DNA of 64,000 bases from an uncultured Clostridia bacterium (lineage in GTDB: Bacteria; Bacillota; Clostridia; Christensenellales; DTU072), in the NCBI GenBank assembly GCA_934274515.1, contig CAKQTC010000010.1, forward strand, positions 2,625-66,624, written 5' to 3'. Shown one piece after another: positions 6,205 through 64,000 of the stretch (position 1 is the first letter of the stretch; each line of letters starts with the position of its first letter). A program made the translations under genes and the position numbers. A model generated the notes under the pieces. The model did not search any database. It was not told where the DNA came from and saw nothing but the letters and a program-made list of their open reading frames with translations.

Positions 6205-6245
6205 TTTTTATTATAAAATAACCTTAAAAACCAAGGAGATGCACA

Positions 6246-36843: not shown

Positions 36844-36928
36844 GGGTGTGCGAATAAAAAGGGGATATTCTACGCTTTTTTACTCGCAAACCGCGGTTGA
36901 ACCGCAAAGAAAACGACGGAGATATGCT

Positions 36929-37009
36929 ATGAGTTCGAAAACGTCTAAACTTCTAAAAATTTTTATGATACTTGTGTGCGTCGTGTTGGCGCTGAGTATC
37001 GTCGCCTGT
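36929..37009 (+). other. Lipoprotein (SPase II) signal peptide of the giant protein
   Basis: MSSKTSKLLKIFMILVCVVLALSIVAC|SKRDPQPDG. It has a basic n-region, a hydrophobic core and lipobox I-V-A-C, with Cys27 at 37007-37009, followed by a Pro/Asp/Gly-rich linker. Confidence 0.7.
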
Positions 37010-40000: not shown

Positions 40001-43000
40001 ACGGGCGACAAAGTTAAAGACAAAGACGGCAACGAATACGAAATTTCGTCGCTTAAACTAAAAGAAAAACTCAAAGACAGAGCGTTTGCGAGAGCGCACG
40101 TCGGAATAGTGGATTACGCCGACGTAGAAAAAGAATTTTTCTATCTCGACCTTACGCTTATCGATACGGTCAACATCGCGAAAACCGACGTACCTTCGTT
40201 TAAGGGTCCGTTGACGACGGCGGCGACGGAATATACGAGCATAGCGGACTGGTCGAAAAATCTGGAAGTATCGGTAAACGTAGAACTTATGTTTGAGGTT
40301 TCCGCGTCCGAACCCACGACGGAATGGGATAAGGTAAACGACGTTTTGGCGCAACTTTTGCCGTCGGAAACGCTCGCGAATTACAGCGCGTTGTTAAAAA
40401 CCGTTGTCGTAAGGTTTTATAACGACTATTTCTCAAACATATCGAGTAACAACAAAAAAGGACTTAACATCGGTATTGCGATTAAAGGAACCATCGACAT
40501 ATCGGATATATTCGCAAGCGAACTCAGCGTGGTTATGTTCGACGCAGCCGAACCCGACGGTTCGGGTTATACGGCGTCCGACGGGTTGCAGTATAAAGTT
40601 ATCGTAGGTATTTATCTTAAAGACAACAAGGCGTACGTTGACCTAGGATATTTCGGAATGGATTTGCTCGCTCTTAACGACGTGCGCAACACCTATAAAG
40701 GCATAAGAGCGGCGCAGTTTGACGCGTTGTGGACGGAAACGTACATCGAGGACAAGACGAGCGGAAAAACGCTGTTCGTGTACGCGGAAGAAGGCGCGTT
40801 CATGGACGAAGCGTATCGGCAGACGATGCTTACGCATTTCCTTAACAATCAATATTCGCAGTATAAAGGCAACGTGGTATCGACATCGGGTAAAGGTTAT
40901 TACGAAACCGAATTCCCGATAAGCGACTACAAGTATTTCGTTTGGAACGAAAGAATTTTGCAAGCGCAGGAAGAGGATAAGGACGACTATTCCAAACTTT
41001 ATTACGGCGACTTAAAACAGCATTACAACGTATACGTTTACGTTAAGAACGACATAGAAAAGGTGTTCCGTACGGACAGCGGCGACAACACGCCGAAACT
41101 CAACCCCGGGTTCGTCAGATACGAGGTTAAACCGAACGGAGAGATACACGTTTACGACGGCAGAACGGAAACGTCGTTTGTGACGATTTCCCCCGTAATA
41201 AGAGACGGTAAATCTGTTACGCTCAACATCGTCGAAGTGGAAAACAGACTGCGTACGAACAGTTACGGCGAAAGCGATTTCGATTATAAACTGTTCCTGT
41301 CGCAAATGAAGTCCGAGGCGTATAGCGGGTACACGGATTATATCAATCGGTACGTGACGTACTGGAACGCCACGAGAAAAGCCACGCCGAGCGTCGAAGC
41401 GACGATGAACGCCGCGTATATAAGCATCGTCGCGAAGAAGAAACAGTATTACAGCGTAGCGTACGTCAATTCCACCGACTTTACTACGGCGAAGAGTAAT
41501 CTGTCGGCGACCATCGTAAGCGATATGCGTAAACTCGGCGGTTACGAATCCATGACCGCGGCGCAGATAAGAGCGACCGAAGAGTATCAGGCAAGATACG
41601 AGAAAGCGGAAGCGCAACTCGTGCAAAAATACGTTGATTCGAAAGCGGAAGCGGCAGGCATCAACAAAGCGGACAACGGGAACATGATAGCGTACACGAT
41701 GCTGTCTTTGCTTAACGGCAAAGATATGGCGAATTTCGGCGTGTACTCCGAAACGAAAGCGCTTAACGCCGCATTGAAAGCGGAAAGCGAAAAACTTGCC
41801 CCGTCGAACGCGGCGAGCATCGTCGGGCCGGAATCGGGCAATCAAAAATCCTATCTTACCGACGCGGGCGCGATAGCGTTGCAATTCGTGTGGAACAAAG
41901 GCAAACTCACGTTTGAACTCACGCAGGAAGTAATTAACGCGGTTATCACCGGGTTGGGATACCCCGAACTCGGCGAAATAATAAACATCAACTATCTCGG
42001 ACTCGGGATTGACCTTAACCACGGGGTAATGCTCGAAGTAATGGTTAAACTCGGCGACGTATATTCGATATTGCTGAAAATAAACAAACTCGAAGCGAGC
42101 GTCGATCCGAGCGAAAGGGATCGCTATGCGGTCAACGTGGATAAATTCGGCGACGTCGGTATGCCGACGGGTATTCCCGACTCGGTTTACGTGGAAGCGT
42201 CCGTAGGCATTACGTTGCAAAACGTGGTAAACAATCTTGCCGCGGCGGAGAACAAGGACGTTACGGATTACGACCTTACCGACTTACTCAACAGATTTTT
42301 GAGCAATTCGGCGTTTAAGTCGAGCGAACTCGACGCGTTCTACAACGAAATCGCGGAGAGAAACCCGGACAAGAAAGACACCCCCGAAGGAATCGTCGAC
42401 ATAAAGAGAATAGCGTGGCAGCAACTTTACGACAACTATCGTTTGGGCGAAACCGAAGACCAAAAGGCGCGCAGAGCGGAAATGGACAAGGTTTACGAGG
42501 CGACTTGGTCGGATATCGAGAAAAAGCAAAAGAAAGACGATCAAGAATATCTGGGAATAACGAAAGGTAGCGCAAGGCACTATGCTTTGTCGTGGGATAA
42601 ACTCGTATCCGGGTCGGTTAAGATTAACCTTAACGAACTCGGCGTAAAAGTTATCGCGCAGTTGTTTGAAAACATCAACGCGACGTTGTTTGTCGACGCG
42701 GAAGCGCTCGTCAACTTCAACAATATTTATTCGAGTACGCTTAAAGTCACGATTAAGAGATGGCTCGGAGAAAAAGGAAAAGACTACGAAGTAGACGACG
42801 AAAACAAAATCGTAAAAGAACTCACGAACAACGAAAAGAGAAGAAAAGCGGAAACCGTGTTGACGTTCTACTACGACGGTTCGGTAAATACGAGTTATTC
42901 CGAATTCCGCGGCGCGATTTACATCGATACGGATATATTCGGTATCGGGCAGGTAAAACTCGAAGACATAACGGTTATTTGGACGGAAGTATTCAAATAT

Positions 43001-46000
43001 TTCGGCACCGACCAGTTCGGCTCGGAAACGATAAAATCCGTTTATAAATTCTTCGGACTTGACGAAAACGGACAAAACCCGCAAAACGCGCCTTACAGAG
43101 CGAGCAATGCGTCGTACGGAGCGAGTAACGCGGCGTACGGCGAAGAAACGGGCAAAGTGTTTAATGCCGTACAAAACGCGGCAGGGGATACGGTAGTATA
43201 CCTTACCGGCGAAGGCGTTACGGCGAAGACCTATCTCGACGTGATGTTCTACAAGGGAGAACTCGGCATAGGCGTAGCCAAATCCGCGGTGCTTAACGTA
43301 CTTAAACAACTCGCCGGCATCGACCTTACCGATCAACTCGAAGACAAAATCGACTTCAACGCGGCGATAATGCTCAATTTCAGCGACAACTTAGGCGTAG
43401 ACGTCACGGTAAACTTCGCCAACGACAAGGGCGGCAAGAGCGCGATTAAGATAGGTGCGGGAGAAATAAGCCTTAACCTTAACAAAGTGCCCGAAAGGCC
43501 CGACGAAAGCAGGTTCGTAGATATAGAAAAACTTGCAAACATCGGTGCGGCGATAGGCGGATACGCGTCGTTCGAACTCGGGAAAATGGGTGAAACGCTC
43601 AACTACGACTACTTGTTCAAACTGCTTTACGGCGCGATATTCGACGACCGTGACCCCGGCATCGGACTTAGGGTAGGAATCGAAGAAAGCGATATTTTTG
43701 CTCAGACCAACTATCTCGAAATCCGCGCGAACGCGAATATGATGACTATGTCGAAATTCGACGGCATAGAACTTTATCTTACGCTCACGTCCAAGAAAAA
43801 CCACGATATATACGAAGAACTCGGCAAAGAAGGCGGTTGGCGCGCGATTATGGACGAGTATCTCGACAAGGCGACCACTTACGAAAGACGTTGGACGTTG
43901 CTTAAAAACTATGCGTTGAGCAAAAACGACAATGCGGGCGATTCTTCCAAAACCGAAGCGGAAAATCTTCTTGCGGGCGGCGGAAAGTTCTTCTTTAACC
44001 TTATGGAAAAAATAGAAGACGAGATGGAAAACCTGTACGGCGCGATTCTTCCCGAAGAAAAGTATACGAAGTTCTGGAACGAACTGTACGGCAGATGCGG
44101 CGACTATTATATGGGCAACGTGCTCAGCCTGTTCGTTACGCTTAACCAAGGCGACGAGAGTTTAGGACAAAGCCCGATTTACGGCAAGATTTATCTTAAC
44201 CTTGCTTTTCTCGGAGTAGAACCTATCGTACTCGACGACGTAAGCGCGTTCGTTGTGGCGATAGGAAAGAGTTTCGGTATCGATTACTCGAAATTATTTA
44301 ACAAAAACAACAAGAACGACGAAACCGACAAACCGTCCAACGCACCCGTTGCTCTCGCAAACGGCGCGACAAGCGCGATGAACGTGCTCGGTAGTTTCGT
44401 TATCGGCATAGACACGCGTGAAAACAAAGACTTTATCGCGGCGGAAATCACGAGTGCGGCAATATATTCCATACTTGCCGCGTTCGGAGTTAAGGACATC
44501 GAACAGTACTTCGGAGAAGACCCGAGCGGAGGCACGGACAATCCGTACTATCCCGCTTATTCGCCGAACCTTAAAGTAAGCCTGTTCGGGTACAACGAAG
44601 TAGACAAGAAGTACGACTTGCTCGGAGTACAACTTGACCTTAAAAATATGCTTAACCTTAAAATAGCGGTGGAAACGCCGACTATCGACATAGCGCGCGG
44701 AAACAAGCGTTTCGTCATCAGGGAATACGCAAAGAACGAAGAAACGAACAAATACGAAGAATATTACACGACGATTGACCAACAGTGGGATACCACGCTC
44801 AAACTGTCGGTAGACGGAGGACTTTCGCTCGGAGCGAAAGACAGGGAAGACAACGAAGGCAAAGACCCGAAAATCAATCTCGGGGATTTACTGCGTGTAT
44901 TCTTAGGAGATAAGTTCAACGTAGACGTCGTTATCGACACCACGCAATCGATATGGGCGGATTTGCACTTCTATATCGACGCGAAAGTCAACGTGATGAG
45001 CATATGGTCGCTTATAAGCAAAGACGAAGAAACGGGCAAAGCGCCTTACGAATTGCTTACCATACCCGAAATAATCGGCGCGGCAGGAGCGGAAGCGTAT
45101 ATCGAAATAGTTTCGAGAGAAAAACAACTCGACGCGAACGGCAACCCCGTTAAAGACGCCGACGGCAACGAAATCATCAAAGGCGAAAAAGTCCTTATCG
45201 GTATCTACCTTATAAAAGAAAGAAACGACAACGGCGACGAGTACCTGTCGTTGTACGTCGATTTAGGCAGTCTTAATATCAGCCCGATAAGCATAACCAA
45301 CCTTACCGCGACGGGTTCGGATATTTGGAAGAGCCTGAGCAAACTGTTCGGAAAGACCGAAGAAGAAACCGCGCAAATGAAAGCGAAAAACGTTCACGAC
45401 GCGCAACTCGACATATTCGCTATGTACACCGCGATGAAAGCGAGCGAAGTCGCGAACGGAGCGAACGGCGCGAACAACAGATATTCGTCGATTTCCGAAA
45501 TGAGCGACAAGAGCAAAAAGTTACAATCGACGATTTACGGCGAAAACGGCGATTTTGAAACGCTTGCGAAGAGAATAAATGCAGGCGAAAAACCGATAGA
45601 GAACGCGGCTACGAAAGCGAGCAACGCGGACGGGCAGATTATGGACGACTTCATATCCGTAGTCGTAGGCAACGAATACGGCGTGACCGTAACGGCGGTT
45701 GCGGCAGTTCTCATCAAGATGCTCGACGAGGCGTTCAACGACGAAAAGAGTATATCTCGTCGTGCGTTTACCGCGCTTATAGAAAAACGTATAGCGGACG
45801 AAATCGAAGCGGAAAAGAAAGTTTTGAGCAATATATCCAAAAATATGGACAACTTGCTCGCAAGTTTAGGCAGGGAAGACGTAATAGTAAGCAAGAGCGA
45901 ATCGTGGGCTGCGCTTACCGCGGAAAACGGTAACATTCTGCCCGCCGCGCAAAAAGCGACGACCAAGACGCTTTACGACGGCATTGTGGCGAAAGCGACA

Positions 46001-55000: not shown

Positions 55001-58000
55001 ATAGGGTCGATGGCGGCTTTGCGTTCCGCAACGATATCGGCGTACAACAAGATAGCAAGTGAGATAAACAAACTCACGGACGGAGAGAAATATTCGTTCG
55101 TCAAGATGTTCGTTGACGCGCAAAGCAAAGCGACCAAGGCAGGACTTACCGGTGCCGAAATGCAAATTTCCGTTATGTGCGATATTATAAGCACCGTTTA
55201 CGGAGGAAGGAACGTAAGCGTGGTTTATCCGCCGAACAACCCCGGTAGCGAGATGAGAATTGCCGTAGGCACCGCCTGGACGAACCTCAAAGGGTTTATG
55301 CTTAACGGCGAAAGCGGAGCGACGATAGGCGGGAAAATTCGCACTTGGTACGAAATTCTCTTCGGAAGAGAAAACGACGCAGGATACCTCAGAGATAAGG
55401 ATATCGCGTTTGCAAACGCTTATGCGTTCAACGTAGACGTCGCCGACTTCAAAGGCAACAACAGTCCTTACGACGTACTCAAAAACAGAATATTCGTCGA
55501 TTTCAAGGCGATGTATCTCGAAGTTATGTTCCCCGACGCGTCCGCGGAAGGTATCGAATCGATACAAGATCTGCTCGCGCGCATTGACGGAAAGAGTTAC
55601 AACGCGACTTATACCGATTTTGTCAAACTTGCCAAGACGTTTGTCGAAACGTACGACGGAGCGGTAGTTGCGCTGGAAACGACGGGCAAATACCAAGCGG
55701 AAGACATCGACGCGTACGCGAAAATCATCGCGCTTAGAGAAACGCTTTGTTTGGTTTACTCCGCGACGTCGTTCGACTTCACGGTTTACGGCGCATGCAC
55801 GCGTTACGCGTTGGAAAAACTGTTCATCGAGTACGCCGCCAACCTTACCGAGAAGACCCTCGACGCGACGGACGGATACAAGACGAAGTACAACTACGGC
55901 GGAGCGAAAGACACGACGTTCTTCGACGATTACCTCATCGACGTAGCGGGAAGAACGGGCAACGTGACCACCGTGTTCGACGGATTGAAAGCGATGAGCG
56001 GAGCGACGAAAGCGTACGGAGATAAACTCGCTTCGTATGTAAAAGCGTTATTTACGCAAACGGACGCGTTGAAAATGCTGTATCGCGACCTTGTCGAAGT
56101 TCTTGCGCCCGGCGAAACGTCTTTCGATATAGTCGGTTACGCTCAAAACAACGGTTACAAAGCGGCGTCCGCGATGGTTGCGCTTATCACGGCGAAAGAC
56201 TACGGCGTAAGCGGACTTACCGAAAAACTTAAATCCGTATTCAGAACCTACACGGCTAAGACGGATATTTCGACGTACCTTATTTACAAATACGACAGAC
56301 TCGCGTCCTACCTTGCCGCAGACTACGATAACCTATACGATCTGCTTAGCGCTTCTTCGGAAGTTAGCGATAACAAAATAATCAAACCCGACGCGGACCC
56401 CGAATCCGAACTGAATAAGAAGTTTGAAAACGCAAGGAAAGATAGCGCGAGTGCCGTCGAGAAAGCGATTATGCTTACCAAGATAGTAGCCACGATAGGC
56501 ATGAGTTTCGACGACATTAAGGACGACGAAGCGAGAGAACTGTACATAAAAGCCTATAAAGTGCTTAGAATGACGGAAAACGCGTCCGAATATCTAAGAC
56601 AGGAAGAATGGACGAGTTACTTCGGCGGCGTAAGCAGAGCGACGCTTGCGGACGAATTCGACGTGCTGTACGACGCTATTATGAAGAATTCGACCGACGC
56701 GACTTTCTACGAATCGATAACGGACGACAAGAAAGCGCTTATAAACGCGGCGCGCGAGAAACTCGCGGTGAGCGCAAACGACAAAGAGAAGAGCAAAGCG
56801 ATGTTCGTTCTCGTAAACGCTATACCCGAAGGACATGAACTTAACGGCGCGACGGCGAACGCGATGGTGAAGACCGCTCGCGAAAAATTCGTCAGACTTA
56901 ACATAAACGACGCTAATTTGTTCGATTCGCTTTCGGATAACGCGTGGAGAAAGCAATACGGCGGACTCGAAGCGACTTACGCTACGGTAACGCCCGCGCT
57001 CGAACTCAAAACGTTGCTTGACAGCATAAACGAGAATCCGGACGACGAAAGTTCGATAAAGAAACTTCTCGACAATCTTAAATTCACCGAAACGGCGAAG
57101 TATCTCGATTCGTACATTTATCAACTCGACTACGACGTTAAAGCGGAAGCGAGCGAGTTTGCGCAACAACGCGAACTCGTGGAGAGAGCGTTTGTAAAAG
57201 CGTATAACGCGGCGGCGAATACGAGATACGACGTGGTGGAAATCGACCTCGGACTCGGCGTGGAGATAGGAAAGACGTACGTAGGCGCGGAAATCGACCC
57301 GGACAACTACCGCGAAGACGTTTTGCCGTTTGAAGAACAGACGAAGTTTATCAACTACGACGAAATGCAACTGTATTTCGAATTCGGCGGATTCTTCTCG
57401 TTCGGGTTCGGCGCAGGCAACGCGGACATAGCGCAGATAGTCAACCTTATTCTCGGCGGATTCAACATTTCGGAAATCTATATAGAATTCTTAAAAACGC
57501 ACATAATGCTCGGCACGTTAAACGCGAAAATCGCGCTTGACGTAGCGAAAGCGTTAAGCAAAGACGAAGCGCAGATTAAACAGGCGCTTGCGGCGGAAAT
57601 AACGTTGAAATACGCCCTTATCGACAACGACGAAAGGGGCGAAACCACTCGTTTCGAGCAACAAATCATATCGATTACGGTATACGACGGTTCTATATAT
57701 CTATCGGCGGAAATCTTCGATATGAAACTTAAACTCAGGCTCGACTTCGACGCGATGAGTTATCTGCTCAAACTGCTCGGCATTATCAAAGAAACCGCCG
57801 ACGAAACTCCGTCTACGGCTACGCCGCATCTAAGCGATATAAACGCAGCCATCTCTTCCGCGCTTAACGGTTGGAGCAAACAAACGGCGAAAGAAAAGAA
57901 CACTCCGATAGGACAACTCGCCAATGCTGCTGCGTCGTCAAGCGGAAAAGACGTGCTGGAAGCGCTCGTAAGAATAGGCAGCGACGAAGCGAGTCTTATC

Positions 58001-61000
58001 CTTACCGTAGATATTCTTCTCGAAGCGTTCAACCTGTTGCTTAACGACAACGAAGCGACGGATATGCTAAACGACATTATATTGATGATATTTACGTCGG
58101 GTAGCGCGAAAGTCGAATACGGCAAAGACTTCGGTATCAATCTTAATCTTAGCAAGAACAGGACGATAAGCGGCGACAAGAACACAAGCGACAACCTTAG
58201 TTACGACATCAACTTAGGATTGTTCAACGATACCGTATTCTATATGAATTCGGTGGATAAACACGAAGATAAGAAAGACTATTTCAGCGACTTTACTACG
58301 GAAATACGCACAAGAAGCGAGAACGGCGAGTTCGACACGTATTTCGTAATGGGGCTCGACCTAATCGGTATGCTTAACGGTATCGGTGCCGGAACGGGCA
58401 AAATCGACGTAGGCTCGCTCGTTACGGACATCATCGGCGACAGACTGCAAATGGGCGTAACGCTCGAAATGGATTCGGAAATCCTGCGTACCGCGATAGA
58501 CTGGAGTAAATTGTTCAGCGCGATGGGTACGCTCAGCGTAGAGCCGATATTCCTTTTGAGAGTGCTTAACTCGACAAGAGGCGCGATAAGATTCGACATA
58601 AACATCGACCTTGACATATCCAAAGTCAACTTCGACGTAAGTTTGAGAGCGTACAACAACGGCGTCAACATCTTTAACGTGTACGAACTCAGCGGAACGC
58701 TCAATACCGACGATACGCCCGCGTTCGCGCCTAAGTTCTATTGCGATATGGGCGAACCTAGACCCGACTGGTCGGCGGAAGACAACAACAAACTCGCAAA
58801 CGAGAAATACGTCATCACCGCGCAATCCTTGTACGACTTCCTTAAAATTAACCTTATGGAAGTTATTCTCGACTTGACCGGCGCCGACCACGACGAAATC
58901 ATCGTAGACAGAGCGGACAACGCGCCCGCGTTCGGCAACGACTCGGCGGTTGAATTCAAAGACATCGACTTCGGTAAAGTATTGCAGAGCGTTACGTTCG
59001 GACAAGGTACGCTCGGTATACGTTTGAGCGAAGCGATACTCAACACGCTTATCAAGTTAATCAACGCCAACTGGGAATTCGACGATATGGGTAACGTTCG
59101 TCTCGATATCGACTTCATGCGGAATACCGTAGGAATAACCGTACCCCTCGACGCCGCTGTCAGAGACGCGGACGGCAATATCCTTTCGGACAGTAAACTT
59201 AAATATGGAATAGAACTCAGCAACATATCCCTCCACATAGGCGAGGCGGTTGACTTCATTTCCGTAACCGGAAAAGAAACCTATTCGGCGTTCAAAGATT
59301 ATAAAGAAATCACGAAATTCGTATGGGTAAGCGAAGTAAACAGTTCGCTCGGATTGCATAACGACGACGAGAATACGATGGTTGACCTCACCGACCTTAC
59401 GATGCGGTTCATCGACGGACTCGGAATAAAACTGCAAAACGGCGAGTCGTTGCTCGACGTAAGTCTTGATTTCGTACTGCGTACCTACATCGACTTCTCG
59501 GACGTAACCAACTTAGGGTTCGAGTTATTGATAAACCGCAGAGGCAGAACGCTTATCGGAATAACGTTTATCGGAGCGGAAAGAGAGGGCGACGTATACA
59601 TCAATCTCGAAGGGTTAGGCTTGCCGAAATTCTATATGACAGGCGTCGATTTAGGCGGCAAGATAGTCGAAATACTTAAAAAACTCGAAGATTCCACGTC
59701 GAAAGACGAGCAGGAAAAACCGTCCAACGCCGACGGCTCCATATCCGGCGGAATATCTTCGGGCGACAAGACGGCGATAGAATACCCCGACATAACCCAA
59801 GCGGGCATAAGCGCCAACCTATTGCTCGCGCTTATAGACGAAAACAAGTTCAACGTGGCGATGACCGGCGCGTTGCTACTCAATCTACTCGGAACGTTGC
59901 CGAAAATTAAAGATATAAGCGCGATGATACCGACGTTTGCCAACCTGCAACTCGGCTACGAAAAGGACAAACTCAGCGGTATAAAATTTGTTTACGACGA
60001 AGGGCAACACTTCTTCATCGATTATAACTTTGAAAAGAGTTATTCCTATCTCGTACCCAAACGCGACCTACTCGACAAGGCGAACAAGGACTACGACGAC
60101 GCAAGAAGCCATATGGTAAGCGACGCGGATAAGAAGGATTTTGTCAATATCGACAATCTTAAAAACGTTAACTTGGGTCTTACCGTCGATATGACGCTCG
60201 TAACAGTCAATCCCGACGGACAAAAGAGCGACGTGGTAAAACAACTCGAAGCCTTGCTCGAAAAACTGTTCGGAATGAAGACGGGCAGTATCGACCTGCA
60301 ATTCCAAGACGCATACGCGTCCATAACGATTGCCGCGGAAATCATAGCCGACCTTACGGATATAAACAATTCCAAACTGAAACTGGAAGTCCTCTACAAC
60401 GGCGAAACGCTTATAGGAATTTACTATCTCAACAAGAAAGTATACCTCGATATGAGCGAACTCGGACTGTTCCAAGCGGCGGTAAACGGCATAGACCTTG
60501 CGGGTGCGTTAAACTACTTCCTCGGCGGCAAACTTCCCATCGATCTCGACGAAGATAAAGGACTTGACGTCAAAGGGCTTGTCACCTCCCTTATCGGAAT
60601 AAGAGCGGGAGAAGAAACGGGTACCACCGACAAGACGGCGACGAGCATTACCGAAAAGAAGATAGAAACCGCCATAGCGGAACTCAAAAAGAACTACGAA
60701 ACGCGTTATAAAGCAGGCGAGTTCAAAGATATAACCGCCACCGAAAAAGAGGCGATTAAAAACGAAATCAAAGACGCGCTCAAACAAATTAACGCCGACA
60801 ACAAGAATTTGCTCAGCCAAAGCGAGTACAACAAAGTTTACGACGAGATTATTAAGAGTATAGGATTCCGTCAAACGGGTTCCAAAATCAACGTCGAACA
60901 AGACAGGAAACAGACTGCGATAATCGCGGTGTCGCTGTTCAACGACAGAATAGAAATCGCGCCTACGACGAAAGCGCTCGGAAACCTTCTCGGCGTGGAT

Positions 61001-64000
61001 ATGCCCGCGTTTAGCGGAATAAGCGTTTCTATGAACCTCGACGCAGGAATAACCAACATTGCGTTAAACGTCAATATGGACGGGAACAACCGGTTCTCGT
61101 TGTCGTTGCCCGAAGAAGGCGGTATCCGCTTAGGGTTCAACCTGACCGACGTGGAAATCAACTCCAAGATAGGCACGATAGACACTGCCGGGTTCGGCGG
61201 ACTTAACGGACTGTTCGTGGGAGCGAGCGGCATCAATGTCGACGTGGAAACGCTTATCGGAAGTTTGCTCGATACGCTCGACGTCAACAACTTGCAACTT
61301 AACCTTGAAAAGAGAACGGACTACTGGGACAGAAGAGACCTGTATTCCTTCTATCCGTACGTCAACGCAAGCGGTCCGACTTACTATGCCGACGACATAA
61401 GCGGTTACGACGGACAAGACGCGCACGCGTTTACCGTCCTATTCAAGGTTATTAAGATAGCGAGAATGATTTACGAACTCGGCAAAGCGATAAAGGCTTT
61501 GGTCGAAATGCTTACGAACTGGGTCAGCAGTTTGTGGAACATTATAAAACTCGTTAAATCGCTTTACAATCTGTATCAACAGTTGAAAGATTTGGTCGGA
61601 GAAGTAACGTTACCGCACGAGCATTTCCCGAAACTGTACCGAAATACGTTCTCGCGAGGGCGACTTGCGATTAATCGAACGGCAAACAACGTGCTGGGAT
61701 TGGCGTTGACCGTACCTTCGGGTAAGAGTACGGCGGTTAAGGCGTATATAGAAGACGCTACGCTGCTTCTAGACATATCGCTCGACTTTACGATAGACTT
61801 GCTTGGCATAATCAAACTCGATATGAGTACGATTATCGACAAAGCGCTCGGGTTCATTAGCGGACCTATGGGCAACGACGGCGGATTCGAAACCACCGAC
61901 GCCGTTCCGCTCAAAATGCTTGCGATTTGCCCCGAATGGATAATGACGCTTATCGACGACAAGAGCGTGGAAAATACTTCCGGTTATTACGGACGTATTT
62001 ACGGCAGACTTACCGATCAATACGACCAACCCGTTAAAGACGCAACCGTTACTTACGTCACCGACAGCGCGGAATACGTCGTTAAGTCCGACAAAGACGG
62101 ATACTACTACTTCGTAGAAATTCCGATGACGAAGCACATCAACCCGATGAACAATCCGTATCTCCTCAGCAAAGTAAAAGAAGAGATGAGGAAAGCGCAC
62201 GGCACGGAAGCGCCCGAGATGGGCAAAGCGTGGTACGAAGGCGTCGAATACATTTATCACGACGGATACTACTACGTCAACAGCGACAGAGGAACGCTTA
62301 GTTTCTACGCCGAAGGCTACGCTTCGCCGGCAAACGAAACCGGATTGTTTATTCAACCCGCTCAAACGAGAAGGGCGCTCGTGTTCAACCAAGAACGCAC
62401 GATGTACCGTACGTCGGGTATCAACAGTTCGCTCATTAAGATGAGGGGTTTCGCTTCGCGCTCCACGCTTACCAACGGTACGAGCGCGGGAACGTTTGGC
62501 GGCGCGGATAACAGCGACGCGTACTTGGCGGCAATAAACAAGAACGACGATTTAATCGGCGGCGTAACCGTCAAATACAACGGCGGACTTAAATCCGGCA
62601 CGACGAACATGATAATCGAGGACGAAACTTACGGTATGTTCAACATGTCGTACGAAGTCTATCCCGATTTGCGCGCGTTAGGCGGAGGAAGACAGTTCTT
62701 CGACGTTACGCTCGGCGGATACAAGTGGACGGGCGCGGCAGTTGCGAGAAGAATAAACGTGAACGCGGACGGCTCGACCAACGGGTATTCGCAAGTTAAG
62801 TACTTGCAAGACGCCGACGCCATCGACGAATGGATAGCGAACGTTGCGGCGCTTGCGGCGGATCCCGGCACGGAATCGAAGAAGACCTACAACGTGGAAA
62901 TCTACTTCTTGATGGAATACGAAGCGAGAAATACCGTTACGTTCGTCGGTTCTCTATGCGAATACGTCGAAGCGACGGGATTCTACGTCGGCAATCCGAT
63001 AATCGGCGAATTCTACGAATTCGACTCTTCGACGAACGGTTACAACCGTACCGCGGACGAAATCTTCCAAGCAAACAAGAAGTACTTTACGAAAGTCATA
63101 CCGCTTGCCGACGATTACACGATATGGGTAGCGGTGGCGGACCGTGGCGGCAGCAACTGGAAGACCGTGGGCGTACACAACTATTACGAACTCGAACCCG
63201 ACAATTTCAGCACGTCGGTAGACAAAGAGAACGGAACGTTCAGTATTACGACGAACGCGCTCGCGAAGAACAAAGACTACAAACTCAAAATACGTTCCAA
63301 AAAGTATCAAAACATCGATTTGCGTATGGCAGGAACGGAAAAATACGTATCTTACACCGACGGAAAGAGCAGAACCAAGGCTACGACGTTTGAATACCTC
63401 GAAGGCAGCAACGAGTATATCAACGCGCAGTTCTTCCTCGAACGCAGAGCGGCTCACTGGTCGGATACCTACGTTTCCGAAGACGCGTCCCTTCTCGAAG
63501 GAATGAGAATAAGAATAGGTACGGACGTACTCGACAAGGATTACGTAAGCACGCATAGCGACAGCGATACCTATACTTATCCCGAACTCGAATATCAAAC
63601 GGGCGGAGAGATTATCTATAACAGTTATTCTTACGTTGAAGTATGGCTTAACAGCGGTAAGTTCAACAAGATAATAATGATGGTCAACAACCTGCTGTGG
63701 GGCTTGGACGGAACGATGGAAGTCAATCCCGACGCGTCGCTCACGCCTAAGGATATAAGTATTGCCAACCGTACCGGCAAAGGCGACTTCGACGCGTCGC
63801 AGTACAAAGAACAAGACCTCGCGAAGAACGGCGAAGATTACTACATCGACAGATTCATAAACCTTTACAGAGGGCAATACAACGAAGACGACTTCAAAGT
63901 AGGCGACAAGATTTATCAAAGCGAAGGAGCGTACTTGCAAGCGATAATCAGCGCGAACCAAAAGACGGGTTCCGGACTTATCCACTATCTGATGATGATG
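36929..64000 (+). CDS. Giant lipoprotein gene, at least 9,024 codons; the 3' end lies outside the window; no recognisable family over most of its length
   Basis: I translated frame 2 (position mod 3 = 2) by hand from ATG 36929 to 64000 and met no TAA, TAG or TGA. The supplied track lists no frame-2 + strand ORF anywhere in 36.9-64 kb, as expected if one ORF runs off the window without a stop. All other ORFs here are short off-frame or antisense ORFs with R/F/V-rich low-complexity translations. The promoter, RBS and lipoprotein signal peptide sit at the 5' end. Confidence 0.9.
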   Translation, partial: MSSKTSKLLKIFMILVCVVLALSIVACSKRDPQPDGPVDPGNQEDPSLTPSETMSKADAFARIKKSMTFLDQSLYDDPEWLCIDTFIEFDFHAYEKEGAVYTKKAKKIAEYSLRIKANISLKDNSQSVVLLELSNVFSNQLYVGVYYYGSTTYLVFGQNSKYYAEEINITTVGQKLVSLLKMGTKDETDIVEFIGNALQSNIDIEAVKKFTSLIWMLLFEEDYIADYSTESYTYKALDENGREQTYTVPKYQYIHEYIKADWILGMLKSGKIQIGNFLDLTISWEGFGLPNLDHVLQDTIGFGLEDIIKKNWPSLRFSLDAITEMKEVILPGDKSKGYEYVFNGFGITIDALDGEFDVSLKTTPFLMEVCNEKRSAISLAGKNFGDAGKGTTYTKGSFTNLEANLQLAVNNSSEVDEVLTVKGLAGNIIKLGGIGDIPIVVGGGASYVFDLGVAASINLFDNSQNYAKARLGYNGREVFAVYLVPDLGNTIVGKEAKVLNTLFFDFHNLKSGGTEFLPNTKLSKIDLTKSLSGLIGEEIMKYIDPYRGDTSASRNPTASNASSVVITEPTGMDVMKLIELLISEKKEPDADGRYKYLRLPKKGKSTKLEISLDNYAINTIAAMFVGGMTLVEEDDGSLHYENGIGIKRVSVGLDFANPLSSIRVAADVTDDVTLKVGIGSDKEGGGYNTGISYFKMPEFDFSAVGLNKYLKAESKEEAEKLRNEYKELSTTLSYAATVAGNFAIGSEENTSLNLDSIMKYLTENYLSKMGINLGQLLASAKVQSASELRIGYEIQVAASLVDLSSVKAVIDLYFLDKNGNKFEQFGGYPFLELYYVGGTTDTLYINTEVSPDADKNLTQQLHTVLGFTEIIFGNVPRLSVTDTGIAKMLNGKGLDITKILALLGVVGYEKENPSSAAKAIYITKDLLRNADDDSGVEVKPKDNSMLDLIGGMINSVTVKDGALGVIVNRNVFGVVMGLAGLAIKDGLPEVNGSLYVHIGTEFDKDGNGNKIFTDEGGKIYTATATGDKVKDKDGNEYEISSLKLKEKLKDRAFARAHVGIVDYADVEKEFFYLDLTLIDTVNIAKTDVPSFKGPLTTAATEYTSIADWSKNLEVSVNVELMFEVSASEPTTEWDKVNDVLAQLLPSETLANYSALLKTVVVRFYNDYFSNISSNNKKGLNIGIAIKGTIDISDIFASELSVVMFDAAEPDGSGYTASDGLQYKVIVGIYLKDNKAYVDLGYFGMDLLALNDVRNTYKGIRAAQFDALWTETYIEDKTSGKTLFVYAEEGAFMDEAYRQTMLTHFLNNQYSQYKGNVVSTSGKGYYETEFPISDYKYFVWNERILQAQEEDKDDYSKLYYGDLKQHYNVYVYVKNDIEKVFRTDSGDNTPKLNPGFVRYEVKPNGEIHVYDGRTETSFVTISPVIRDGKSVTLNIVEVENRLRTNSYGESDFDYKLFLSQMKSEAYSGYTDYINRYVTYWNATRKATPSVEATMNAAYISIVAKKKQYYSVAYVNSTDFTTAKSNLSATIVSDMRKLGGYESMTAAQIRATEEYQARYEKAEAQLVQKYVDSKAEAAGINKADNGNMIAYTMLSLLNGKDMANFGVYSETKALNAALKAESEKLAPSNAASIVGPESGNQKSYLTDAGAIALQFVWNKGKLTFELTQEVINAVITGLGYPELGEIININYLGLGIDLNHGVMLEVMVKLGDVYSILLKINKLEASVDPSERDRYAVNVDKFGDVGMPTGIPDSVYVEASVGITLQNVVNNLAAAENKDVTDYDLTDLLNRFLSNSAFKSSELDAFYNEIAERNPDKKDTPEGIVDIKRIAWQQLYDNYRLGETEDQKARRAEMDKVYEATWSDIEKKQKKDDQEYLGITKGSARHYALSWDKLVSGSVKINLNELGVKVIAQLFENINATLFVDAEALVNFNNIYSSTLKVTIKRWLGEKGKDYEVDDENKIVKELTNNEKRRKAETVLTFYYDGSVNTSYSEFRGAIYIDTDIFGIGQVKLEDITVIWTEVFKYFGTDQFGSETIKSVYKFFGLDENGQNPQNAPYRASNASYGASNAAYGEETGKVFNAVQNAAGDTVVYLTGEGVTAKTYLDVMFYKGELGIGVAKSAVLNVLKQLAGIDLTDQLEDKIDFNAAIMLNFSDNLGVDVTVNFANDKGGKSAIKIGAGEISLNLNKVPERPDESRFVDIEKLANIGAAIGGYASFELGKMGETLNYDYLFKLLYGAIFDDRDPGIGLRVGIEESDIFAQTNYLEIRANANMMTMSKFDGIELYLTLTSKKNHDIYEELGKEGGWRAIMDEYLDKATTYERRWTLLKNYALSKNDNAGDSSKTEAENLLAGGGKFFFNLMEKIEDEMENLYGAILPEEKYTKFWNELYGRCGDYYMGNVLSLFVTLNQGDESLGQSPIYGKIYLNLAFLGVEPIVLDDVSAFVVAIGKSFGIDYSKLFNKNNKNDETDKPSNAPVALANGATSAMNVLGSFVIGIDTRENKDFIAAEITSAAIYSILAAFGVKDIEQYFGEDPSGGTDNPYYPAYSPNLKVSLFGYNEVDKKYDLLGVQLDLKNMLNLKIAVETPTIDIARGNKRFVIREYAKNEETNKYEEYYTTIDQQWDTTLKLSVDGGLSLGAKDREDNEGKDPKINLGDLLRVFLGDKFNVDVVIDTTQSIWADLHFYIDAKVNVMSIWSLISKDEETGKAPYELLTIPEIIGAAGAEAYIEIVSREKQLDANGNPVKDADGNEIIKGEKVLIGIYLIKERNDNGDEYLSLYVDLGSLNISPISITNLTATGSDIWKSLSKLFGKTEEETAQMKAKNVHDAQLDIFAMYTAMKASEVANGANGANNRYSSISEMSDKSKKLQSTIYGENGDFETLAKRINAGEKPIENAATKASNADGQIMDDFISVVVGNEYGVTVTAVAAVLIKMLDEAFNDEKSISRRAFTALIEKRIADEIEAEKKVLSNISKNMDNLLASLGREDVIVSKSESWAALTAENGNILPAAQKATTKTLYDGIVAKATKDGFSTATTRDEQVLQSIAWDAYYWTINGVSYDDAVKVYPNRAQNSGDGKKYDITLDKFNEYTSLGIKSGDTTLGGLIGGLTDRLKDALTENERVVLTAVEYTEYYYEAAAFDNYVRYLEDMLYVLNRVYDEAKAKNTHPGTNKELYNKQIAYDILTSDNGSRNYTLPAINGGSQTRDFHLDAEDYTLFIGWYDAYLKGYETAGETDAKAKTWQDVVNRYQAAYASVVNTINTVNASAYNLFYGAGVTLDEGVLPFSTARAAGITWYANLKVPVKYSGFDARFSLTFKTYAWEYLVESGWVEKVHETRFISAEMAKITSANKGKDQEAYKNYAWPKYYSDVKTLTEKGEGFGYVLARNCTYVLEEAKQGAEVKYRKDFSDADKDAAGRTTWRLVKLEDDLLNTMDELFVSSRSDVPSVIVDTAGGVGTVQVGLLHANNLVSVHVWLGNLEMGLAFVGAGLYLDEYDLNKSVFIAKKNEGYWQQEERQQLVADYIHELPDGHFAPFDKDFKYVYAKLSLDFDLDADQTSFNLQKLIDVVMADLGINIEIAGNAIGLNLILETLQVISKKFRLEVEARVNLFDLFKGELGTTDLALTLYALEGGGDRKILQIALGSYIDSEDGKAKNFVYVDFSRFNIQRLIIRDAIEYVRDLFGGKAANAFAPYDFDYVGSVPELLGAAMMYGVMKSADEDGVVASNASASGENEKIDIKLSKAGLSTTVASGAIYALLNFFGLPQIEKYVSKAVDLTLGVDIFAVDDDLIGKDFTDADRDLIRLSIALNSLGKDGTTADSTGVRLDFGIHKAEVSLDQRKFVLGADSAANLESKLDLPKNDKGEKLYAEIAEELPNLVLTTTIEVQVKAEEVSRQDFNKAPIKNILDTLTKEGNLSSIIGQIFFEIYDDHDMTLAIDVAADVDLGDGSDKNYLDHIIKGSIVRIQVRAWHTNTSTSEGDVEELKKKVWATLTYYEGALYVDLSALNIQKIKLDDAAGLVFGKGEKAKNAWTEVGEMWKAASTLTTRTNLEATIYGDSDGIYLMIEKAAISSLIGVLGFGSLEVVTDALAELYVEAIKVGGDAISLGLGVNIAIDSKGTIFIDGGESGIKDPNRGNSDIDATFVVHAGVRGIYIGFHNLEDWSPVNSTEYNEVREINVIKLGTQAYLELGNEKGTYELKALIETLLKKLDVNLNLNKELQGIIELLDANDVKFEIAVDLDLGIGTIINDILSGTKSFGDVLPDDIMTLIKALQAKITLNIVREGKANSKIVLALIRGDAYLDLSGLNKTLGKGKIENAIELIGSLIGGEAKKGSYVAEQASNATQALAGLVNALAKAKNGSPAVSDAELNAQYLHFALSGVEGLTVTVIYGAVKSVVRYLLGSESLAEVIDMISLVSNPSASANLGYDVELGLRLIVPSTVFNDNDFNKMNALMEDGKNFFGYGKERVEAFTDEKPFLDPNKDGQGYNYVINANGLTVNKFARAIAEKTLLYKKYTISDTEKANKVNELIRTTFLANGTSVEKLLANYAARYEFYDENACKVALYDYLLIEAYENGKDFETYFGGSTSEDKTVAGKVLKDYLYGNEESGIPKAYGEFEAFMKNVYDVEKDVDQAAYDFVTAYLKGLIVSRDAWLVLIGAEIETVGDGLIIHSKKYDDLYDELLVEAWEEKLTRVDNAIKANESFETEQNKTAFAEAWREKAYMIYSESYAKTTAGERDYRAVAYEELTELLETSATIELSGMRNDDKNTYKSKLWDNAMIYTYCDPSAVAILKGVDEINTEGSDKETAFRKARELMHSITSGIEAYALEALTGSNANGKDMLTGEEEISLAYDLIYDFKSAVAGVKEYFGGNVGDSTRKLLAAIGKSLYEKGYKLAGAGSGGAMSNEDYAKLYEEAYALNKELFAQFIAGETAYTNYMHKSFSEKAWDALIGGLNFEIENTDDFLKAAEAYISGDSVSGTLYESLVRANKKTLMYILENIHYDYWKAKQSIAAQGGSGIDETLFDAFGKTTVAMYATDGMISALTNMISDSFSKEYVYAMALAFLAARKAAPTLAPAFETDGLGVVEPILAGSDDKTFIYAAAYGALAKVATGNASDETKAAAALAKKYYDAFTSSKEFYSDETARLRVDEFAEIAARLYVGATATVKGELELAAYYYGQRSDRITIAGTDMNAEEMKALETLKKANGEGSPERDLKDAAYRRVLRSSSTAEMYEEYLAVRSNFIFEVIYKNSKENREALKSIILVSADADVNNMASAVIGEGTAFTAENIDIYYEIYNEEYSKELGKFIEEVYKESIEKSKDTNESKKSVSPILEKALETLVYKVLYNKLTVKEQAATLIALYREAETLSADINDAQYALIKEFYKEFGEAVSAFATESGNLKDVAEELLKGEGYSNNALLGELTSKEIIDYYNKLIAGLGANLDAKVVEKDKPLVAGTANDKVAGKMYETIKTFLDDDKAFRNNKNETTYKAETVDNQPKQDDLGYDKINKIQKVRDYFIVTHTLSIDNSISFPMYSGTSSIWRMLGIGEMPFRNPIENKNRATKMVLSDGTVVPAAWTTSGGDAQCWIETAYSQEDEFSIEYEYKSEGPDSPDEDEAEAMEAARDEALNAYIKSEAYKAKVAALVAATKAAFRKDVNDLIKFTGMMLGTEPMTTDPSVSIPKFDVVGGASDRTFINLVNAANTAEKLYAYANSAINAMNLWMEEVEEIGESTVDFATFKISALKHFYSYLKPVDNREYYKHYAQTGALGKVLDALKAENNFVPANGSELERLATVRDKIHGYLGELKLNETTEAVSGEKSRELVYKYYVELKTKASAWISYEDVKTTAGRTLAAILTDMAEQVRLLSFEYYAYTVYRLFDRMTDEGKTYSGGKKLKKTEEWYEGISKMKETDQAAVKAIFDKVLYNVTLYTCMDESTTAEKDKETVIEMPFSSSTMYMTKEEMAIFAEILFNMTKEKAKQYYPFDYTLEAYKSFYGATATERETYLARNAEKTIKYVAKIIEEYGADTIGSMAALRSATISAYNKIASEINKLTDGEKYSFVKMFVDAQSKATKAGLTGAEMQISVMCDIISTVYGGRNVSVVYPPNNPGSEMRIAVGTAWTNLKGFMLNGESGATIGGKIRTWYEILFGRENDAGYLRDKDIAFANAYAFNVDVADFKGNNSPYDVLKNRIFVDFKAMYLEVMFPDASAEGIESIQDLLARIDGKSYNATYTDFVKLAKTFVETYDGAVVALETTGKYQAEDIDAYAKIIALRETLCLVYSATSFDFTVYGACTRYALEKLFIEYAANLTEKTLDATDGYKTKYNYGGAKDTTFFDDYLIDVAGRTGNVTTVFDGLKAMSGATKAYGDKLASYVKALFTQTDALKMLYRDLVEVLAPGETSFDIVGYAQNNGYKAASAMVALITAKDYGVSGLTEKLKSVFRTYTAKTDISTYLIYKYDRLASYLAADYDNLYDLLSASSEVSDNKIIKPDADPESELNKKFENARKDSASAVEKAIMLTKIVATIGMSFDDIKDDEARELYIKAYKVLRMTENASEYLRQEEWTSYFGGVSRATLADEFDVLYDAIMKNSTDATFYESITDDKKALINAAREKLAVSANDKEKSKAMFVLVNAIPEGHELNGATANAMVKTAREKFVRLNINDANLFDSLSDNAWRKQYGGLEATYATVTPALELKTLLDSINENPDDESSIKKLLDNLKFTETAKYLDSYIYQLDYDVKAEASEFAQQRELVERAFVKAYNAAANTRYDVVEIDLGLGVEIGKTYVGAEIDPDNYREDVLPFEEQTKFINYDEMQLYFEFGGFFSFGFGAGNADIAQIVNLILGGFNISEIYIEFLKTHIMLGTLNAKIALDVAKALSKDEAQIKQALAAEITLKYALIDNDERGETTRFEQQIISITVYDGSIYLSAEIFDMKLKLRLDFDAMSYLLKLLGIIKETADETPSTATPHLSDINAAISSALNGWSKQTAKEKNTPIGQLANAAASSSGKDVLEALVRIGSDEASLILTVDILLEAFNLLLNDNEATDMLNDIILMIFTSGSAKVEYGKDFGINLNLSKNRTISGDKNTSDNLSYDINLGLFNDTVFYMNSVDKHEDKKDYFSDFTTEIRTRSENGEFDTYFVMGLDLIGMLNGIGAGTGKIDVGSLVTDIIGDRLQMGVTLEMDSEILRTAIDWSKLFSAMGTLSVEPIFLLRVLNSTRGAIRFDINIDLDISKVNFDVSLRAYNNGVNIFNVYELSGTLNTDDTPAFAPKFYCDMGEPRPDWSAEDNNKLANEKYVITAQSLYDFLKINLMEVILDLTGADHDEIIVDRADNAPAFGNDSAVEFKDIDFGKVLQSVTFGQGTLGIRLSEAILNTLIKLINANWEFDDMGNVRLDIDFMRNTVGITVPLDAAVRDADGNILSDSKLKYGIELSNISLHIGEAVDFISVTGKETYSAFKDYKEITKFVWVSEVNSSLGLHNDDENTMVDLTDLTMRFIDGLGIKLQNGESLLDVSLDFVLRTYIDFSDVTNLGFELLINRRGRTLIGITFIGAEREGDVYINLEGLGLPKFYMTGVDLGGKIVEILKKLEDSTSKDEQEKPSNADGSISGGISSGDKTAIEYPDITQAGISANLLLALIDENKFNVAMTGALLLNLLGTLPKIKDISAMIPTFANLQLGYEKDKLSGIKFVYDEGQHFFIDYNFEKSYSYLVPKRDLLDKANKDYDDARSHMVSDADKKDFVNIDNLKNVNLGLTVDMTLVTVNPDGQKSDVVKQLEALLEKLFGMKTGSIDLQFQDAYASITIAAEIIADLTDINNSKLKLEVLYNGETLIGIYYLNKKVYLDMSELGLFQAAVNGIDLAGALNYFLGGKLPIDLDEDKGLDVKGLVTSLIGIRAGEETGTTDKTATSITEKKIETAIAELKKNYETRYKAGEFKDITATEKEAIKNEIKDALKQINADNKNLLSQSEYNKVYDEIIKSIGFRQTGSKINVEQDRKQTAIIAVSLFNDRIEIAPTTKALGNLLGVDMPAFSGISVSMNLDAGITNIALNVNMDGNNRFSLSLPEEGGIRLGFNLTDVEINSKIGTIDTAGFGGLNGLFVGASGINVDVETLIGSLLDTLDVNNLQLNLEKRTDYWDRRDLYSFYPYVNASGPTYYADDISGYDGQDAHAFTVLFKVIKIARMIYELGKAIKALVEMLTNWVSSLWNIIKLVKSLYNLYQQLKDLVGEVTLPHEHFPKLYRNTFSRGRLAINRTANNVLGLALTVPSGKSTAVKAYIEDATLLLDISLDFTIDLLGIIKLDMSTIIDKALGFISGPMGNDGGFETTDAVPLKMLAICPEWIMTLIDDKSVENTSGYYGRIYGRLTDQYDQPVKDATVTYVTDSAEYVVKSDKDGYYYFVEIPMTKHINPMNNPYLLSKVKEEMRKAHGTEAPEMGKAWYEGVEYIYHDGYYYVNSDRGTLSFYAEGYASPANETGLFIQPAQTRRALVFNQERTMYRTSGINSSLIKMRGFASRSTLTNGTSAGTFGGADNSDAYLAAINKNDDLIGGVTVKYNGGLKSGTTNMIIEDETYGMFNMSYEVYPDLRALGGGRQFFDVTLGGYKWTGAAVARRINVNADGSTNGYSQVKYLQDADAIDEWIANVAALAADPGTESKKTYNVEIYFLMEYEARNTVTFVGSLCEYVEATGFYVGNPIIGEFYEFDSSTNGYNRTADEIFQANKKYFTKVIPLADDYTIWVAVADRGGSNWKTVGVHNYYELEPDNFSTSVDKENGTFSITTNALAKNKDYKLKIRSKKYQNIDLRMAGTEKYVSYTDGKSRTKATTFEYLEGSNEYINAQFFLERRAAHWSDTYVSEDASLLEGMRIRIGTDVLDKDYVSTHSDSDTYTYPELEYQTGGEIIYNSYSYVEVWLNSGKFNKIIMMVNNLLWGLDGTMEVNPDASLTPKDISIANRTGKGDFDASQYKEQDLAKNGEDYYIDRFINLYRGQYNEDDFKVGDKIYQSEGAYLQAIISANQKTGSGLIHYLMMM
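61994..62131 (+). other. CarboxypepD_reg-like beta-sandwich domain within the giant protein
   Basis: RIYGRLTDQYDQPVKDATVTYVTDSAEYVVKSDKDGYYYFVEIP matches the G-x-V-x-D-x-x-G-x-P-h-x-x-A-x-V ... T-D-x-x-G-x-Y-x-h signature of carboxypeptidase-regulatory-like domains. Confidence 0.5.

Follow-up and report, generated by a model that had tools for sequence, protein, structure and literature searches.

Giant fibrillar adhesins of Gram-positive bacteria, among them Ebh and proteins of the Cna-B/Big/SpaA type, consist of a stalk plus a distal binding region, and the spacer repeats of adhesins usually homogenise. Few gut taxa are linked to host genetics and leanness as often as the Christensenellaceae, and we know of almost no work on their surface biology. 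A survey of giant genes has found metagenome-derived bacterial proteins of more than 10,000 amino acids (aa), some of them from mammalian-gut Clostridia; the clostridial giants carry RCC1, Listeria-Bacteroides repeat, YG, dockerin and leucine-rich (LRR) repeats, and those of the Omnitrophota combine numerous transmembrane regions with divergent SecA DEAD-like domains (bioRxiv 10.1101/2023.11.21.568195). Here we describe a giant gene that begins at position 36929 of a 64,000-nucleotide (nt) stretch of DNA from an uncultured Clostridia bacterium (hereafter the window) and runs off its end. The gene encodes a predicted lipoprotein that belongs to a family with a cryptic, order-fixed array of modules and a non-repetitive C-terminal region.

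Machine translation of the + strand in frame 2 gave 9,024 codons from ATG 36929 to the last base of the window with 0 stops, and each of the five other frames over 36929-64000 contained 77-592 stops. The closest in-frame stop upstream of the ATG lies at 36833. A preliminary description of this DNA had reported the open frame and its omission from the accompanying list of open reading frames (ORFs). Both observations were correct, and the gene was missing because the ORF lister drops ORFs that run off the source. Extension to the true stop, as that description had proposed, was achieved with a 90-kb contig of the European Nucleotide Archive (ENA), ERZ27286923 k141_220404, which was found through the neighbouring LOG-like protein and records a product of 12,552 residues. 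The reverse complement of k141_220404 was 100% identical to window positions 25673-46233. The giant gene would end at window coordinate 74,623, and the window holds 71.8% of it (9,024 of 12,564 codons). The full gene measures 37.7 kb, and its product has 12,564 aa (~1.4 MDa) with an isoelectric point (pI) of 4.7.

The LOG-like neighbour was found on 7 contigs, 6 of which share the neighbourhood. Samples with this organism include ERZ27286923 and ERR321646. A contig (L005) of the metagenome-assembled genome (MAG) 'uncultured Catabacter sp.' carries an orthologue that is 80% identical over aa 4887-9024 (range given 80-88%); it remains open for 3,518 codons past the window end and terminates with a TAA stop at ~12,542 aa in composite numbering. 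Catabacter is now placed within Christensenella (Christensenellaceae, Christensenellales), and the host, judged by this orthologue, is a Christensenellales-type Firmicute, a gut bacterium like Christensenella or Catabacter. The ratio of nonsynonymous to synonymous substitution rates (dN/dS) between the window gene and the Catabacter orthologue was 0.175 overall and 0.08-0.24 in every 500-codon block. The relative synonymous codon usage (RSCU) of the giant gene followed that of the neighbouring genes (r = 0.905). Collinear orthologues were present in independent assemblies at 80%, 55%, 42% and ~25% identity, and the collinear homologues P0001 (6,789 aa) and P0002 (7,826 aa) are complete genes. 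Window positions 36929-64000 hold codons 1-9,024 of one intact 12,564-codon gene on the chromosome, and this gene is under purifying selection along the compared length.

These data effectively refute the explanation that the open frame is an artefact, whether through chimeric or collapsed assembly, as a frame that is open but non-coding, or as a pseudogene in decay. Such an explanation could appeal to the failure to find the giant gene in a word-indexed protein database and to one relative that is split into three frames by two frameshifts, and it is opposed by the assembly of the locus in several samples, by the collinear orthologues, by the low dN/dS of every block and by the fact that all 12,564 codons are free of stops. 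The split relative, on ENA ERZ16268178 scaffold_9240 (L004:1-12744), is an orthologue 42-55% identical over aa 4914-9207. It was called as three overlapping genes in three frames, with frameshifts near L004 1875 and 9850-9875, and P0033 (67% identity) is a part of it.

An alternative genetic code was considered and is unneeded: the neighbouring genes and the orthologues terminate in ordinary stops, and the standard code suffices, as had been stated before. One antisense frame of 36929-64000 had only 77 stops in 9,024 codons, and numerous ORFs of 100-480 aa that start with TTG or GTG lie in it. These ORFs seem to follow from the giant gene's codon bias (G+C content at third codon positions, GC3, 0.60) and not to be real genes.

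The gene caller on the ENA contig began the giant gene at the internal ATG 36965 (Met13, MILVCVV...), which gives the 12,552-aa product. We prefer ATG 36929 because it is preceded by a GGAGA ribosome-binding site (RBS), correctly noted in the preliminary description, because the resulting n-region is positively charged as in relatives, and because it agrees with the N-terminus of P0001. This makes 12,564 aa the probable length of the true product. The TTGACT-17-TATAAT site upstream had been described as a perfect promoter. The site is present, but it has 11 of 12 matches and its frequency is at chance level, since shuffled sequence yields a mean of 0.9 such sites against the 1 seen in 36200-37000. 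It is consistent with a promoter of the giant gene and is not proof of one.

The N-terminus of the giant protein, MSSKTSKLLKIFMILVCVVLALSIVAC followed by SKR, has a charged n-region, a hydrophobic core and the lipobox IVAC. Written as MSSKTSKLLKIFMILVCVVLALS-IVAC27-SKR, it fits the lipobox pattern [LVI][ASTVI][GAS]C, and the signal peptide is the sole segment of the giant protein above 1.8 on the Kyte-Doolittle scale. The same arrangement of signal and lipobox was found in nearly all full-length family members. The giant protein is a predicted lipoprotein, as first described, and would be a substrate of Lgt and signal peptidase II (SPase II). The genes lgt and lspA were not in the 64-kb window. 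No LPXTG motif, second hydrophobic segment or known wall-binding domain was found in the giant protein. Its window part has a net charge of -401 and a very acidic, hydrophilic, globular composition, with 16 Cys in 9,024 aa (about 15 had been counted by eye). Computation also bore out the reported absence of low-complexity or low-entropy linkers from the window part of the protein and of significant tandem DNA repeats from the window part of the gene.

The preliminary description had gone further and denied any repeat architecture, and here it was wrong. Self-BLAST and single-sequence phmmer searches of the window protein detected almost no repeats. Repeats were seen only with a module profile (module A) that was seeded from the P0002 array, where a ~262-aa periodicity is visible, and iterated on three proteins. 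The profile search identified 13 module copies in the window protein with domain E-values of 1e-11 to 1e-37, and the best match in locally shuffled controls had an E-value of 0.075. The module has a ~190-aa core and a ~312-aa period (median of 579 spacings in a 152-protein family database), and the whole period is repeated. The copies are mutually 11-22% identical and make up about half of the window part of the giant protein, in arrays at aa 1-1260, about 1610/1820-2930, 3450-4440 and 6766-8050. Window modules 1-11 paired best with P0002 modules 1-11, and window modules 12-13 with P0002 modules 13-14. P0002 and P0005 matched one-to-one over all 14 modules. The fact that modules show one-to-one positional orthology between members only 21-30% identical indicates that the array is ancient and its order fixed, unlike the homogenised repeats of classical adhesins. 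An array that has kept its order while its copies diverged to this extent means that giant proteins taken as non-repetitive can hide ancient repeat arrays.

Insertions interrupt this plan (Table 1). The distal part of insertion 1, from ~aa 1610, matches what precedes and follows the core in the repeat period. Insertion 2 holds about one copy of a ~120-aa unit (aa 2974-3120, nt 45848-46288). In P0001 (L001) this unit is arranged in tandem at aa 2421-2748 and 3136-3302, with inter-copy E-values down to 1e-30. The tandem copies in P0001 and the nearly single copy in the window suggest that local repeat expansion is ongoing in some lineages. Insertion 3 is non-repetitive, confined to the closest relatives and richer in Ala and helix-prone residues than the remainder. 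It is also the fastest-evolving part: its dN/dS is 0.19-0.24 (aa 4887-6886, the part covered by the orthologue), while the last modules and the C-terminal region have 0.08-0.14. HHalign found no relation of insertion 3 to module A, and comparison of the insertion with itself gave one weak duplication only. This duplication lies at its end (aa 6459-6602 and 6570-6718, nt 56303-57082) and has a period of ~110 aa (HHalign probability 88-89%, E ~2e-6). Insertion 4 (aa 8404-8757) is lineage-specific and lies within the C-terminal region. Aligned with its relatives, this lineage has grown the family ground plan from ~7,500 to 12,564 aa via several insertions.

An exhaustive HMMER search of 1.84 billion proteins with the module profile yielded 191 cluster representatives at E <= 1e-3, of which 44 reached E <= 1e-30. 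Lengths of 5,000-7,900 aa with 13-15 modules in fixed order are common among them. Clusters P0007 (7,879 aa) and P0036/P0174 were represented in NCBI genomes, on contigs as long as 1 Mb. The giant protein had been presented as if it were unique, and this did not hold: at least 191 protein clusters carry the module, and several are in NCBI as hypothetical proteins. A word-indexed search returned only P0001 (42%), P0002 (~25%) and P0033. The relatives came from Clostridia, Eubacteriales or Firmicutes MAGs under the names 'hypothetical protein' or 'carboxypeptidase-like regulatory domain-containing protein', and searches of a paper library turned up no description of a module-A giant lipoprotein family. 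The ground plan of the family is a predicted lipobox, 13-14 modules of ~300 aa and a non-repetitive C-terminal region of ~3,500-4,500 aa, which contains one or more transthyretin-like beta-sandwiches and strongly conserved aromatic- and Gly-rich motifs. In the window protein, ordered module copies follow the lipobox, and the C-terminal motifs and the sandwich region are present. It is the longest family member seen. The 12.5-k-aa window protein and the Catabacter orthologue were absent from the two protein collections searched, and the 12,552-aa product was found in a gene-position index. It may be that homologues longer than ~8,000 aa are under-represented in protein collections and that the length range of the family is underestimated. 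The module profile provides a handle on ~190 related protein clusters that are now labelled hypothetical.

The C-terminal region carries the family motif RIRLGAD.LD ... SYVE.WLN and the motif LEKRN.YW, with invariant columns in two family alignments (A2 and A3). Invariant residues include K/R/S at aa 8787-8790, H8843, R-x-R-x-G-x-D at 8860-8866 and Y-x-E-x-W at 8902-8906. Across lineages, conservation is highest in the C-terminal ~1,000 aa, where invariant Y, W, F and G abound. Collinearity with P0002 extends to within ~200 aa of the end of P0002. A single CarboxypepD_reg-like domain had been recognised by eye. The orthologous site in P0002 scored 69.3 bits, which speaks for the domain, whereas the window copy, at 21.6 bits, remained below the 32.3-bit threshold. 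A family profile of aa 8051-9024 (A3) matched NOMO2 (2.6e-5), carboxypeptidase M (7.7e-5), carboxypeptidase D and cellulosomal scaffoldin sandwiches among PDB sequences, and this transthyretin-like beta-sandwich was its sole match there. The window protein probably contains a CarboxypepD_reg domain, which would cover <1% of its length.

Pfam gave nothing but the sub-threshold CarboxypepD_reg for the whole window part, and it gave no match in the C-terminal 1,000 aa or in the 3,333-aa Catabacter extension. NCBIfam had no match for the giant protein. PDB sequences were not matched by either half of the protein, by the module-A profile or by the C-terminal 1,000 aa. Together with Foldseek, these searches recovered one transthyretin-like sandwich only, so that the early impression of almost no known family content was sound. 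More than 99% of the giant protein is invisible to comparison with Pfam, NCBIfam and PDB, and it is a concrete, clearly bounded case of protein 'dark matter'. Module 9 (aa 3824-4041) was modelled with AlphaFold2 (AF2) from an alignment of 31 diverged copies. The model had a mean predicted local distance difference test score (pLDDT) of 72.8, ~90 in the core, and a predicted TM-score (pTM) of 0.61. It shows five long beta-strands with alternating hydrophobic residues and helices between the strands. Foldseek found no significant neighbour of this model in PDB (best E ~1, TM <= 0.2) or in BFVD. An AF2 model of aa 8051-9024 from 7 sequences reached a pLDDT of 37.8, and only the sandwich attained 60-73. 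The fold of the ~300-aa module may be new, as judged from one moderate-confidence model. The giant protein may also represent a new architecture class, as had been proposed, because the module, in this one model, has no detectable structural relative.

The reading we favour, to which we give about an even chance, is that the giant protein is a lipid-anchored, extended surface protein whose module array keeps the conserved distal region at a distance from the cell. Sec export, followed by lipidation at Cys27, would tether the protein to the outer face of the cytoplasmic membrane. The module array would then form a long stalk, acidic and folded, on which the remainder of the protein is borne across the cell wall and past it. 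The conserved distal C-terminal region, perhaps with the variable insertions, would bind a ligand outside the cell, for instance a glycan, the surface of the host or another cell acting as partner. The giant protein would act like a giant fibrillar adhesin or a surface organiser. A surface or binding role is suggested by CarboxypepD_reg-type sandwiches, which stand in tandem in relatives, by Big_4 in P0087, by the RCC1/Big_2/Big_3 protein encoded directly downstream in L002, by the very acidic globular composition free of low-complexity stretches, by the conserved aromatic/Gly-rich C-terminal ~1,000 aa and by insertions that evolve faster than the core. Several points weigh against this reading. 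The adhesin or stalk role is deduced from architecture, and no adhesive, lectin, cohesin/dockerin, SLH, CWB or sortase element was recognised in the giant protein. The fold of the module comes from one moderate-confidence model that lacks a structural neighbour, and the extended, rod-like shape is an assumption. A passive spacer would not usually keep 14 different modules so strictly in position, which hints at module-specific functions. The two frameshifts in L004 may reflect an assembly error or pseudogenisation.

We regard it as possible, if doubtful, that the module has a new fold and that the family, in uncultured gut Clostridia, is a new class of envelope machine and not simply one more adhesin. 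In such a machine 14 domains that cannot replace one another would form a membrane-anchored chain, and each would have a partner or an activity of its own. If this is true, the 12,564-aa Christensenellaceae version would be the largest member of that class, with >4,000 aa of clade-specific and otherwise unmatched sequence. Non-interchangeable modules whose order is kept across the family would also suit a structural or organising protein inside the envelope, that is, a scaffold or ruler for wall or S-layer assembly in which each of the 14 modules docks a different partner. The membrane-anchored protein would then remain within the wall zone and would not face outward as an adhesin. Such a role would agree with strong purifying selection along the whole length, with the location of the gene among housekeeping genes instead of a mobile or variable island, and with the lack of a recognisable adhesive domain. 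We consider it unlikely, since huge lineage-specific insertions and a length range of 5.6-12.6 k aa are hard to fit to a ruler or fixed scaffold, the three or four loci seen have no conserved partner gene next to the giant gene, and the family is patchy (191 clusters) and not universal in Clostridia.

Degradation of surface glycans or mucin by a non-catalytic scaffold or multi-enzyme protein with novel catalytic or carbohydrate-binding domains is a less probable explanation. The invariant charged and aromatic blocks of the C-terminal region, among them H8843, could be read in this way, as could its aromatic-rich conserved C-terminus, the resemblance of the sandwich domain to modules of cellulosomal scaffoldins and carboxypeptidases, the glycoside hydrolase family 3 (GH3) gene that the Catabacter contig has downstream and the M60-like mucinase gene in the window. 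Yet ~12.5 k aa contain no glycoside hydrolase, peptidase, carbohydrate-binding module (CBM), cohesin or dockerin signature, and the neighbouring enzyme genes are not conserved between loci. Still more improbable is that the protein conducts lipids or other hydrophobic cargo as a bridge, in the manner of the repeating-beta-groove (RBG) proteins VPS13/ATG2 and TamB/YhdP/AsmA-like. An N-terminal membrane anchor followed by a long array of modules with almost no sequence identity recalls these proteins, and so do the five long strands of the module model with their alternating hydrophobic residues. However, Pfam gave no match to AsmA, TamB (DUF490) or Chorein-type families, and Foldseek gave none to solved RBG, TamB or VPS13 structures (one model, pLDDT 72.8). 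The model places helices between nearly every strand pair, unlike the RBG beta-meander, the giant protein is very acidic and hydrophilic overall, and a host presumed from taxonomy to be a monoderm Firmicute would have no second membrane to bridge.

Three other candidates were rejected. A nonribosomal peptide synthetase (NRPS) or polyketide synthase (PKS) would require domains for which there was no match. A polymorphic toxin does not agree with a C-terminus that is the most conserved part across lineages and not variable, and no toxin domain was found. The neighbours are housekeeping genes, and a prophage or mobile element was dismissed on this account.

The window is otherwise ordinary chromosome, with an htpG fragment, PFOR, phosphatases, two-component systems, heavy-metal P-type ATPases, an M60-like peptidase with a mucin-binding module, an amino-acid ABC transporter, cca, hpt-tilS, Fe-ADH, HAD and the LOG/SLOG gene. 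The M60-like gene (17144-20296, - strand) encodes 1,050 aa with Peptidase_M60 (enhancin-like), a mucin/carbohydrate-binding module and Ig-like surface domains, and its predicted product is likely a mucin-targeting surface protease, which fits a gut habitat. A 1,416-aa protein (6246-10496, + strand) has a purple-acid-phosphatase-type metallophosphoesterase in its C-terminal third, and its first ~960 aa are without a Pfam match. Two ORFs on the - strand, at 33366-34856 (496 aa) and 28173-28781 (202 aa), belong to no Pfam family; both were called as genes on the identical ENA contig, and the 496-aa ORF was also present on a Logan contig. Rfam scans of the window and the 5' region revealed no riboswitch, and their sole match was a chance-level ArcZ (E = 0.23).

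A SERCA/PMCA-type P-type cation ATPase (Cation_ATPase_N, E1-E2 and Cation_ATPase_C; L005:17586-20447 and L002:39053-41719) is encoded two genes downstream from the giant gene on the Catabacter contig and on the distant P0002 contig, and not in L006. Its synteny may be conserved (two loci), which would make it the one exception to the lack of shared flanking genes and is of interest given the very acidic giant protein. Calcium dependence of the giant protein was considered as a possibility, by analogy, because of the position of this ATPase in two distant loci. Immediately downstream of P0002, a gene at L002:32004-38144 encodes a 2,046-aa putative surface protein with RCC1/WD40_RLD repeats and Big_2/Big_3.

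Table 1. Features of the giant gene and its 5' region in the window. Coordinates are window positions.
Feature	Coordinates	Strand	Basis or remark
Sigma-70-type promoter-like site, TTGACT-17 nt-TATAAT	36815..36843	+	11/12 matches; sole such site in 36200-37000
GGAGA ribosome-binding site	36918..36922	+	Read from sequence, 6 nt 5' of ATG 36929
Predicted lipoprotein signal peptide (aa 1-27), lipobox I-V-A-C, Cys27	36929..37009	+	Sequence and hydropathy
Module array 1 (aa 16-1260), modules 1-4, anchors aa 16, 348, 689, 1061	36974..40708	+	Positional orthologues of P0002 modules 1-4
Insertion 1 (aa 1261-1819)	40709..42385	+	Tiles aa 1351-1700 common to only 3 proteins
Module array 2 (aa 1820-2930), modules 5-7	42386..45718	+	Profile matches
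Insertion 2 (aa 2931-3488)	45719..47392	+	aa 2974-3120 match the ~120-aa unit amplified in P0001
Module array 3 (aa 3489-4440), modules 8-10	47393..50248	+	Profile matches; module 9 = aa 3824-4041
Insertion 3 (aa 4441-6765), 2,325 aa, largest	50249..57223	+	Between modules 10 and 11; common to only 1-3 proteins
Module array 4 (aa 6766-8050), modules 11-13	57224..61078	+	Orthologous to P0002 modules 11, 13, 14; dN/dS 0.09-0.14
Start of non-repetitive C-terminal region (aa 8051-9024)	61079..64000	+	Conserved blocks aa 8051-8404 and 8757-9024
Probable CarboxypepD_reg / transthyretin-like beta-sandwich (aa 8357-8399)	61997..62125	+	Pfam PF13620, 21.6 bits vs 32.3 cut-off

A 37.7-kb gene for a ~1.4-MDa predicted lipoprotein, kept under purifying selection and recovered from several samples, represents a large investment for these bacteria, and its product can be compared with several described giants. 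Like Ebh of Staphylococcus aureus and the stalk proteins of the Cna-B/Big/SpaA type, it would be a megadalton, surface-tethered, acidic and Cys-poor protein with a modular stalk. It differs from them in that no FIVAR, GA, Big or Cna-B stalk domain was above threshold in the window protein and in that its predicted anchor is an N-terminal lipid, not a C-terminal transmembrane segment or LPXTG. Its modules are ~300 aa long and, in the model, mixed alpha/beta rather than ~100-aa Ig-like domains, and its repeats are ancient and positionally fixed at 11-22% identity instead of homogenised. The very long acidic extenders that hold distal ligand-binding domains in the giant RTX/BIg adhesins LapA, SiiE and MpIBP offer a second likeness. 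In contrast to these adhesins, the window protein has no BIg or cadherin repeats, RTX nonapeptides or type I secretion system (T1SS) context, and it carries a Sec/SPase II signal for export. The repeats of the surveyed clostridial giants and the SecA-like domains and multiple transmembrane regions of the Omnitrophota giants are likewise lacking from the window protein, which has one hydrophobic segment. TamB, YhdP and VPS13 (RBG/AsmA-like) resemble it as giant, N-terminally anchored proteins with structural repeats of negligible sequence identity, but no family or fold match was found, helices lie between the strands of the module, and the host is presumably monoderm.

The true homologues of the window protein are clostridial MAG proteins, of which MFA5448907.1 and MCL2629995.1 were deposited as 'carboxypeptidase-like regulatory domain-containing protein' and MDY5440424.1 and MBQ9145409.1 as 'hypothetical protein'. 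They share with it the lipobox, 13-15 modules in the same order, CarboxypepD_reg sandwiches and the RIRLGAD/SYVE.WLN motifs. These homologues are 5.6-7.9 k aa long, and the window protein reaches 12,564 aa via clade-specific insertions at aa 1261-1819, 2931-3488, 4441-6765 and 8404-8757 and via further insertions in its C-terminal part. The giant lipoprotein is a new variant among giant surface proteins, more modular than it was first read to be, from a family that is present in databases as hypothetical proteins only.

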